Shown: piece by piece, positions 34,131 to 34,670 of the stretch
How the letters are laid out: the number at the start of each line of letters is the position of its first letter
Numbering within the stretch: position 1 is the stretch's first letter
Translations under genes and position numbers: made by a program
Source of the DNA: Candidatus Sericytochromatia bacterium
GTDB lineage: Bacteria > Cyanobacteriota > Sericytochromatia > UBA7694
Length of the DNA stretch: 64,000 nucleotides
Assembly: GCA_018780035.1 (NCBI GenBank)
Contig: JADMKE010000003.1
Location: forward strand, 146,753-210,752
Direction: 5' to 3'
Notes under the pieces: generated by a model
Told to the model about the DNA's origin: nothing
Databases searched by the model: none
What the model saw: only the letters and a program-made list of their open reading frames with translations

Positions 34131-34670
34131 TTAAGTGGGCTCTTTGTCTTTGGCTGGCGCGCTTTGAATCTCTTCAATCGTGTTGCGCAGGGTTTCGGTT
34201 TGTTGAAATTGCATCCGCAGCGCTTCATCCAGATCAGATTCAGAGATCAGGCCTTTTTCTTTCAGCACTTCACCCAGGTGTTTTTCGGGGTTTTGTTTTT
34301 GAATTTCAATCGCTTCAACCAGTTCAGACAAGCGAATGACCTGACGTTTGATCAAAATTTCACCGAGACGCTCGTGTTGAGAGAGGCGCTCCCATTTTTC
34401 TTCGGTGGTCATGCGGCCCAGTTCACGCAGGCTGTCGTCCACGACTTGGCTGCCACGGATCTGGGCAATCAGGTAATCAACCAATTCATCTTGAGTGATA
34501 AACCCTTTTTCGACGGCCAGTTCACCCAGGCGCTTGCCCGTGCGTTCCTGTTCCTGCATCAATTCGGTGAGTTGAGAGAGCTTGAGGGCATGTATCCGCA
34601 CAAGCATTTCACCCAGGCGTTCAACCCGGGTCAATTTCTCCCAATTGTCCTGTTCTTTTTGTTTTTCCAT
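34131..34670 (-). CDS. tandem T2SSE_N/MshEN-like domain protein (putative c-di-GMP receptor)
   Basis: Two copies of the paired 24-residue MshEN motif separated by a 5-aa spacer: RLGEMLVRIHALKLSQLTELMQEQ-ERTGK-RLGELAVEKGFITQDELVDYLIAQ and RLGEILIKRQVIRLSELVEAIEIQ...HLGEVLKEKGLISESDLDEALRMQ. ATG at 34668-34670; alternative TTG at 34691. Confidence 0.5.
   Translation of the reverse strand: MEKQKEQDNWEKLTRVERLGEMLVRIHALKLSQLTELMQEQERTGKRLGELAVEKGFITQDELVDYLIAQIRGSQVVDDSLRELGRMTTEEKWERLSQHERLGEILIKRQVIRLSELVEAIEIQKQNPEKHLGEVLKEKGLISESDLDEALRMQFQQTETLRNTIEEIQSAPAKDKEPT

Follow-up and report, generated by a model that had tools for sequence, protein, structure and literature searches.

A stand-alone tandem MshEN_N protein from the Sericytochromatia as a candidate c-di-GMP receptor lacking an output domain

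The window analysed here, a 64,000-nucleotide stretch of contig JADMKE010000003.1 from a Candidatus Sericytochromatia bacterium, carries on its minus strand a gene for a 179-amino-acid protein which, judged from its sequence, is a stand-alone (MshEN_N)2 protein, that is, a tandem cyclic di-GMP (c-di-GMP)-motif architecture with no output domain. We predict this protein to be a small cytosolic receptor of the MshEN_N type, which would lack an output of its own and act on a partner encoded elsewhere, and we assign this reading a probability of roughly 0.68. A minimal c-di-GMP receptor is the best reading because of the match to a curated profile, the sequence matches to MshE, PilF and PilB, and the superposition of the predicted fold on that of MshE. 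An initial annotation, made from the DNA letters only, had described a stand-alone double MshE-type c-di-GMP-motif protein without an ATPase, and in this respect it was borne out by all three lines of evidence.

The protein contains four 24-residue motifs, arranged in tandem as two pairs with a spacing of about five residues. Motif 1a (R18-LGEMLVRIHALKLSQLTELMQE-Q41) is followed by a 5-residue spacer (ERTGK) and by motif 1b (R47-LGELAVEKGFITQDELVDYLIA-Q70), while motif 2a (R101-LGEILIKRQVIRLSELVEAIEI-Q124) is followed by a 6-residue spacer (KQNPEK) and by motif 2b (H131-LGEVLKEKGLISESDLDEALRM-Q154), which begins with His and not with Arg. The paired motifs had been recognised in the initial annotation, and all four are indeed present; they depart from the pattern given there in the residue at position 10 of motifs 1a and 2a (H and Q, respectively), in the initial His of motif 2b and in the length of the second spacer. 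In line with this motif content, the NCBIfam model NF053729, a 53-position profile named 'cyclic di-GMP-binding domain-containing protein, MshE-related', matched three stretches of the protein with 97.5 bits against a cutoff of 38 (E = 2.7e-28), and it was also matched by 30/30 aligned orthologues (best 7e-32). A sequence search of solved structures returned PilF (3e-8), MshE (5HTL, 1.3e-5) and several PilB proteins (2.5e-5), with residues 17-78 aligning to residues 8-68 of 5HTL. The TIGR02538 PilB model matched through its first 53 positions only, and NCBIfam models of NfrB matched as well. The two halves of the protein share 34% identity over 76 residues (E = 2e-14) and therefore represent an internal duplication of a unit of about 83 residues, each copy of which comprises a pre-motif helix, a four-helix bundle and a trailing helix. 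Both copies contain the 53-residue double motif from which the c-di-GMP-binding four-helix bundles of MshE, PilF GSPII-B and NfrB are built.

The profile similarity to the MshEN family that had been anticipated from the DNA was thus found in NF053729 and in 5HTL and failed in one respect, as Pfam T2SSE_N (PF05157) gave no match to the protein at E ≤ 1. The alpha/beta subdomain MshEN_C (T2SSE_N1) was likewise not found, given the missing PF05157 match, a structural model made of helices only and units of just about 83 residues. Because of the absence of both, the earlier designation of two T2SSE_N modules was given up in favour of (MshEN_N)2, i.e., MshEN_N subdomains only. Neither an ATPase nor any other domain was detected in the protein by profile searches, and the chain ends at residue 179. 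Two further Pfam matches were considered and rejected. PATAN/DUF4388 (PF14332) scored 27.9 bits, above its cutoff of 25, yet only positions 46-79 of the 122-position profile were covered, on residues 106-161, which correspond to module 2. FumaraseC_C (25.7 bits) reflects a similar small helical domain, and C-termini of fumarases and aspartases also appeared low in the structural match list. Elsewhere in the window (22581-23399, plus strand), a 272-residue protein is a full-length PATAN/DUF4388 protein (8e-14, 52 bits, profile positions 1-120/122) that does not carry the MshEN_N motif.

The AlphaFold2 (AF2) model, for which 30 orthologues were used, contains helices only, four in each module, and no strands. 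Its mean predicted local distance difference test (pLDDT) score was 63 and its predicted template modelling (pTM) score 0.39; pLDDT values ranged from 63 to 74 in module 1 and from 73 to 86 in module 2, and fell below 50 in the N-terminus and the linker (residues 74-99). A Foldseek search of the Protein Data Bank (PDB) placed 5HTL_B, MshE in complex with c-di-GMP, at the top (root-mean-square deviation of 0.7 Å over 54 columns, probability 1.0, E-value 0.21), and PilF GSPII-B with bound c-di-GMP was also retrieved (1.0 Å over 52 columns, probability 1.0). Short match length accounts for the weak E-values. A helix spanning residues 3-25 runs through the first pre-motif segment at low pLDDT. In module 2, the better modelled of the two, the pre-helix is interrupted at E100, immediately ahead of R101; helix alpha1 of ligand-bound MshE has likewise been described as broken (PMC5013675).

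With regard to distribution, a word-indexed search recovered 51 homologues, all of 170-200 aa, and every named one was annotated as 'hypothetical'. An exhaustive profile search of 1.84 billion representatives gave 3874 matches at E ≤ 1e-3, among which about five 50%-identity clusters at or below 1e-30 constitute the orthologous family, the remaining matches being other proteins with one to eight MshEN_N modules. When one genome per GTDB species was scanned, members of the family turned up in 16 species, all of them Candidatus Sericytochromatia/Blackallbacteria, with one listed as an unclassified Cyanobacteriota. The protein encoded in the window is 100% identical to a product on JBPXJQ010000004.1, from 'Candidatus Blackallbacteria bacterium isolate mt_P12'. 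Unrelated short metagenomic proteins that consist of the motifs only were also retrieved (P0109, 136 aa, with two modules; P0161, 149 aa; P0175, 152 aa), together with a longer one of 193 aa and three modules (P0101). Two larger proteins, P0057 (430 aa; NF053729 224 bits, seven stretches) and P0058 (435 aa), are made up almost wholly of seven to eight consecutive MshEN_N-type stretches and, by their sequences, could be multi-site c-di-GMP binders.

The minus-strand open reading frame (ORF) is a real gene, as the initial annotation had assumed, with a product of 179 residues plus the stop codon and not of 180 residues. In the alignment, the homologues begin at positions consistent with its ATG start. 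The product is soluble and acidic (pI 5.1, net charge about -9), with no transmembrane (TM) or hydrophobic segment. The artefactual explanation, in which the true gene would be the antisense plus-strand ORF or in which there would be no gene at all, draws on the greater length of the plus-strand ORF, which a naive longest-ORF map of positions 34164-34775 selects, so that this kind of calling picks the wrong strand. We regard it as having a negligible probability, given the 51 database homologues of the minus-strand product and its strong match to a curated profile, the terminator that follows the gene on the minus strand, and the Phe-rich low complexity of the plus-strand ORF, which is what is expected opposite a Glu/Lys-rich gene. 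The antisense ORF was consequently ruled out, having no support to set against the minus-strand homologues and profile match.

Whether the modules can bind c-di-GMP was judged from the ligand-contact residues, whose conservation was counted over 30 orthologues sharing 46-99% identity. Gly3 of motifs 1a, 1b, 2a and 2b (G20, G49, G103 and G133) is kept in 30/30, 30/30, 30/30 and 28/30 sequences, respectively. Every motif has L, I or M at position 2 and a hydrophobic residue at position 21 in 30/30; Leu17 and Gln24 are each kept in 27-30/30, with Q70 invariant. Position 1 is R or K in motifs 1a, 1b and 2a, and a Gly at position 10, under a relaxed definition that accepts G, A or S, is found in motifs 1b (30/30) and 2b (26/30). 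In MshE, the backbone NH groups of Gly3 and residue 4 bond to O6/N7 of guanine (PMC5013675). Since isolated VcMshEN_N (residues 1-62/65) binds c-di-GMP with a dissociation constant (KD) of 0.35 uM (PMC5013675), the C-terminal MshEN subdomain is dispensable. The regions around the motifs are conserved as well: W10 is kept in at least 90% and R15 in 100% of the orthologues in the first pre-motif segment, E83, K92 and W93 of the linker are invariant, and D78, L81, L84, G85, M87 and E91 are kept in at least 90%. On the strength of the conserved contact residues, and after allowing for the caveats at position 10, at the His of motif 2b, in the spacer and in the pre-motif segments, we consider it likely that at least one module binds c-di-GMP.

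A number of observations weigh against such a receptor. Motifs 1a and 2a lack the position-10 turn glycine (0/30 and 1/30, respectively) and have N, Q, H or K instead, outside even the relaxed [GAS] set. Position 1 of motif 2b is His in 25/30 orthologues, which lies outside R/K/L and the relaxed [RKPN] set and has no tested precedent, and the spacer of module 2 has six residues in 30/30, while that of module 1 has five (six in the distant clade). Ahead of each R-L-G stand conserved helical extensions with a capping-box-like L-[TS]-x-x-E, the second of them being W-E-R-L-S-Q-H-E before R101-L-G, and in our own reading L13-T14-R15-V16-E17-R18 would fit the capping-box pattern. These extensions resemble the blocking helix alpha1 of PilF GSPII-A, which is one turn longer, locked by the N-terminal cap (Ncap) L-T-I-G-D-K, and which occludes the pocket and abolishes binding (PMC12002112). 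The acidic net charge of the protein differs from the basic patch on MshEN_N, the AF2 model is of moderate confidence only, and no gene is retained as a neighbour throughout the family, MMPL, lexA, GCS2 or HAD genes being found according to clade. In the literature searched, no binding experiment was found for any (MshEN_N)2-only protein, nor was a characterised stand-alone MshEN_N. Lastly, no GGDEF, EAL or HD-GYP domain was detected among the 45 window ORFs scanned. Among the orthologous loci, L008 contains an HD_5/HD gene at a distance of about 6 kb from its orthologue.

Some of these departures have precedents among known binders. At position 1 of the motif, where His lacks one, R, K and L are tolerated, and Pro occurs in PilF GSPII-C. 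Longer spacers also occur in aligned PilB proteins and in PilF GSPII-C, and the latter binds c-di-GMP. Motif I of NfrB has Gln at position 10 and binds c-di-GMP with a Kd of 1 uM, and Bd2402, with Asn at this position, binds it too. In PilF GSPII-B, the same helix extension as in GSPII-A unwinds upon binding (PMC12002112).

The same departures from the consensus can be read as signs of a degenerate MshEN_N fold that does not bind, like XpsE or PilF GSPII-A, and that serves only as a helical interaction or scaffold module. The missing turn glycine of motifs 1a and 2a, the His of motif 2b, the Ncap-like L-T-R-V-E and L-S-Q-H-E on the pre-motif helices and the acidity of the protein all fit this view, as does the loss of binding in many MshEN domains (Wang et al. 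2016, PMC5013675). In GSPII-A, moreover, the stabilised helix extension abolishes binding even when the consensus is restored. We nevertheless judge a non-binding module to be rather unlikely. The non-binder XpsE has lost G11V, R38G, G40L, L54H, L58C and Q61V (PMC5013675), and the equivalents of these residues are kept in the present family as Gly3, Leu17, hydrophobic 21 and Gln24, over four motifs and at 46-99% identity; the proven binders NfrB and Bd2402 carry Gln or Asn at position 10; and the modelled pre-helix of module 2 is broken at E100, an alpha1 break being known from ligand-bound MshE as well. The pre-motif helices may represent a lid or, less likely, a permanent block.

A receptor for another cyclic dinucleotide, 3'3'-cGAMP or c-di-AMP, in place of c-di-GMP, appears very improbable. 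VcMshEN_N does bind cGAMP weakly (KD 3.3e-4 M; PMC5013675), and His131 together with the Trp extensions could conceivably shift specificity. Nevertheless, the guanine readout by the backbone NH groups of Gly3 and residue 4 is kept in all four motifs, MshEN does not bind c-di-AMP (PMC5013675), and we saw no sign of an adenine pocket in the sequence.

Returning to the c-di-GMP receptor, we propose that each bundle would bind one c-di-GMP in the MshE mode, so that a protein could hold up to two ligands at independent sites. We expect each guanine to be sandwiched between the side chain at position 1 (R18, R47, R101 or H131) and a leucine cluster, its O6/N7 to be bonded by the backbone NH groups of G20/E21, G49/E50, G103/E104 and G133/E134, and the sites to be closed off by Q41, Q70, Q124 and Q154. 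For binding to occur, the Trp-bearing pre-motif helices (residues 10-17 and 93-100) would have to kink or unwind, in the way that helix alpha1 of MshE and PilF GSPII-B does. This movement would reposition the conserved linker (residues 74-100) and alter a partner-binding surface. Because the protein has no enzymatic or DNA-binding domain, output would be by protein-protein contact, presumably with a partner encoded elsewhere, resembling the single-domain PilZ or ComFB/CdgR adaptors.

The gene looks like an independent monocistronic unit, a reading that follows from its own promoter-like sites and terminator (Table 1); the terminator-like hairpin sits between convergent genes. An element of the TGGTATGAT type recurs upstream of the gene in two relatives, L001 (TGCTATGAT, 70% protein identity) and L007 (87%), giving an extended -10-like consensus TG[GC]TATGAT at 34727-34735 in the window, at about 5960-5975 in L001 and at about 5885-5900 in L007. 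The intergenic regions of L001 and L007 also carry TGGTAAAAT on the opposite (MMPL) strand, and both elements taken together suggest compact back-to-back promoters. Comparison of the intergenic region and its flanks with Rfam revealed no riboswitch or other RNA above noise.

Table 1. Coordinates in the window of the gene for the 179-aa protein, its parts and the adjacent elements.
Feature	Position	Strand	Basis or remarks
Gene for the 179-aa protein, (MshEN_N)2	34131..34670	minus	ATG start; stop codon 34131-34133; ORF list and homologues
Pre-motif segment 1, aa 10-17, W-E-K-L-T-R-V-E	34620..34643	minus	Predicted helical; capping-box-like L-T-x-x-E directly before R18-L-G
MshEN_N module 1, aa 18-70	34461..34619	minus	Best NF053729 stretch, 18-70 = profile 1-53/53
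Inter-module linker and pre-motif segment 2, aa 71-100 (...VVDDSLRELGRMTTEEKWERLSQHE)	34371..34460	minus	Conservation
MshEN_N module 2, aa 101-154	34209..34370	minus	Best PDB stretch, 92-165, against PilF GSPII-C
C-terminal helix and acidic tail, aa 155-179	34134..34208	minus	AF2 helix 144-169; E167 invariant
Intrinsic-terminator-like hairpin	34058..34093	minus	11-bp stem, then T-run TCTTTTTT; 38 nt past the stop codon
Candidate extended -10 element TGGTATGAT	34727..34735	minus	Inferred from sequence; shared with intergenic regions of relatives
Second sigma-70-like site	34797..34769	minus	Promoter-like sequence upstream of the 179-aa gene
Antisense shadow ORF, 203 aa	34164..34775	plus	Longer than the real gene; Phe-rich low complexity
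Micro-ORF, 24 aa	34701..34775	plus	AAGGAGGTG upstream; inside the promoter/leader of the minus-strand gene
MMPL/RND-type transporter, 741 aa	34824..37049	plus	PF03176, E = 1.8e-52; divergent, 153 bp from the 179-aa gene; neighbour only

The MMPL/RND (resistance-nodulation-division)-type transporter gene, which the initial annotation had correctly placed divergently from the 179-aa gene, was the basis there for suggesting second-messenger control of export. We compared the neighbourhoods of the orthologues over flanks of ±4-10 kb, counting distinct loci. A divergent MMPL gene was found in 11/14 loci whose orthologue is at least 69% identical to the window protein and in 0/9 loci at 46-60% identity. 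Within the former clade, the MMPL gene is replaced by an aminotransferase or methyltransferase gene in L013 and L014, and the 4 kb upstream of the orthologue in L023 contain none; the MMPL proteins are down to 41-57% identity, and the genes further out differ among loci. A lexA gene lies downstream of the orthologue in all nine loci of the 70% subclade, but not at the corresponding position in the window, and in the 46-60% clades a GCS2 ligase is found upstream in 6/9 loci and a HAD hydrolase often immediately downstream. The 179-aa protein is therefore more conserved than any of its neighbourhoods, and as no neighbour is kept family-wide, context gives no pointer to the output.

Based on these counts, direct gating or regulation of the divergent exporter by the protein, acting as a c-di-GMP sensor, seems quite unlikely. 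The divergent pair is, it is true, maintained in most loci of the clade at or above 69% identity in spite of the diverged MMPL sequences and the differing outer neighbours, and the two genes are separated by only 63-220 bp, in which promoter-like elements stand back to back. On the other hand, within this very clade the MMPL gene is replaced in L013 and L014 and was not found in the 4 kb upstream in L023, it is never adjacent in the nine loci of the 46-60% clades, and lexA is equally conserved as a downstream neighbour in the 70% subclade. The MMPL protein itself has no cytoplasmic domain: by hydropathy, it has about 12 TM segments, two periplasmic loops, a cytoplasmic loop of about 30 aa at residues 327-356 and a tail of about 25 aa, which leaves little cytoplasmic surface. 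Nor was any MshEN-MMPL coupling reported in the MshEN literature searched. The adjacency pattern looks like ordinary synteny decay; because the MMPL gene is absent from all nine distant-clade loci, export control is unsupported, and the exporter is at most a weak, clade-restricted partner candidate. A regulatory region shared with the MMPL gene in the Blackallbacteria clade is conceivable. Decidedly improbable, in our view, is a fuller version in which the protein would be a two-site adaptor with a ligand-gated lid, the Trp-bearing pre-motif helices and the linker being displaced, and with the divergent MMPL/RND exporter as its partner in the Blackallbacteria clade. If true, it would be the first of its kind, an output-less MshEN_N adaptor with two sites and a ligand-gated lid, and, to our knowledge, c-di-GMP control would be seen for the first time in an MMPL-type lipid or polymer exporter.

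The micro-ORF with a perfect Shine-Dalgarno (SD) sequence that had been noted between the two genes is present, together with its AAGGAGGTG, and was rejected as a chance ORF, as it is not conserved in L001 or L007. It has no counterpart in the 63-bp intergenic region of L001 (the 70% relative), an unrelated 25-aa ORF occupies its place in L007 (the 87% relative), and its SD-like string is the complement of the 5' leader of the 179-aa gene itself.

Additional observations were made on the flanking genes. The lexA gene (LexA_DNA_bind and Peptidase_S24, 209 aa, 85-100% identical among loci) lies about 300 bp downstream of the orthologue on the same strand in L001, L013, L014 and L021-L026. In the 52-60% clade (L005/L028, L008/L027, L010, L029, L031 and L032), the orthologue adjoins a gene for a GCS2-family ligase of 450 aa, with a HAD hydrolase gene on the other side in four of these six loci (L005/L028, L010, L029 and L032). 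Because the HAD start abuts or overlaps the stop codon of the orthologue, co-transcription of the two is possible. In the window, a PALP + ACT gene (threonine-dehydratase-like; 37046-38257, plus strand) starts 4 nt before the MMPL stop codon and, given this overlap, is probably co-transcribed with the MMPL gene in this genome. Two genes away from the 179-aa gene lies a gene at 30774-33227 (minus strand) for an 817-aa, bacterial major-vault-protein-like product with MVP_shoulder (6.5e-28), Vault_3 and SPFH/Band_7 matches.

Further away, the window contains a candidate defence pair, HEC-01 (54323-60252, minus strand). HEC-01B/DUF4276 has 238 aa (54323-55039, PADLOC 2.4e-51), and the HEC-01A-type AAA_21 ATPase corresponds only to the C-terminal ~380 aa (4.5e-103) of a 1738-aa protein with an N-terminal extension of about 1350 aa bearing a TCAD9 domain, an unusually large fusion. 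The 179-aa protein itself gave no PADLOC match, and no anti-phage defence role is indicated for it. A 1247-aa ORF at 6314-10057 (minus strand) had no Pfam match at E ≤ 0.001.

As for its significance, the stand-alone tandem MshEN_N architecture was already catalogued in 2016, and the present family is a lineage-specific addition to it. Current concepts are unchanged, as motif, fold and architecture are in the literature and the exporter link is unsupported by comparative context. Few c-di-GMP receptors are known in cyanobacteria, which the ComFB paper calls a knowledge gap (PMC12448109), and with this family there is one clear candidate receptor throughout the Sericytochromatia, the non-photosynthetic sister lineage. 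As a small, soluble and easily expressed protein, it could serve to probe the limits of drift in the MshEN_N consensus (missing turn glycine, position-1 His, N-terminal helix extensions), and it could also reveal the signalling route of a receptor devoid of an output domain.

Among known systems, Wang et al. 2016 (PMC5013675) stated the (MshEN_N)2 arrangement as possible and listed cce_1044 of Cyanothece sp. ATCC 51142 (ACB50395) in their Supplementary Table 4 as 'MshEN_N only, no T2SSE_N1 domain'; it is not in their table of isothermal titration calorimetry results. This protein, from a related phylum, is like the 179-aa protein in architecture (about 145-180 aa, two MshEN_N modules only), while its motifs are far more degenerate (QPLGTLQEAKL..., QSLGYYLREAGL...) and the W-E-x-L pre-motif and the conserved linker are missing. 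It was rejected as an orthologue, since only short local motif matches (best 28.9 bits) and no colinear full-length alignment were obtained. A 2025 paper remarks that the MshEN domains of Nostoc and Synechocystis had yet to be tested for c-di-GMP binding.

The MshEN_N of Vibrio cholerae MshE (5HTL) shares with the 179-aa protein the two 24-residue motifs in a four-helix bundle, with the alignment of module 1 and the 0.7 Å superposition described above. In contrast to MshE, the 179-aa protein lacks both MshEN_C (T2SSE_N1) and the ATPase, its module is duplicated, and it differs in the first-motif residue at position 10, which is not Gly, the His that opens motif 2b, the 6-residue spacer of module 2, the Trp extensions and an acidic character in place of the basic patch. 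PilF of Thermus thermophilus, which gave the best sequence match, likewise has tandem MshEN-type modules (GSPII-A/B/C; 8PDK, 8PFA, 9G1W, 6F8L), in which K or L is possible at position 1, spacers vary and helix alpha1 unwinds upon binding; these modules keep a C-terminal alpha/beta subdomain ahead of a secretion ATPase, whereas the 179-aa protein has neither. Escherichia coli NfrB and Bdellovibrio Bd2402 are c-di-GMP binders that are not ATPases and that have, as here, Gln or Asn for Gly at position 10 of one motif, yet they are fused to an output or input domain (a glycosyltransferase and a REC domain, respectively), which the 179-aa protein does not have. Stand-alone PilZ and the cyanobacterial ComFB/CdgR (PMC12448109) offer a functional analogy only: they have unrelated folds and binding modes and no sequence similarity, according to the cited papers and general knowledge, and they are small cytosolic receptors that act via partners, as we propose for the 179-aa protein.

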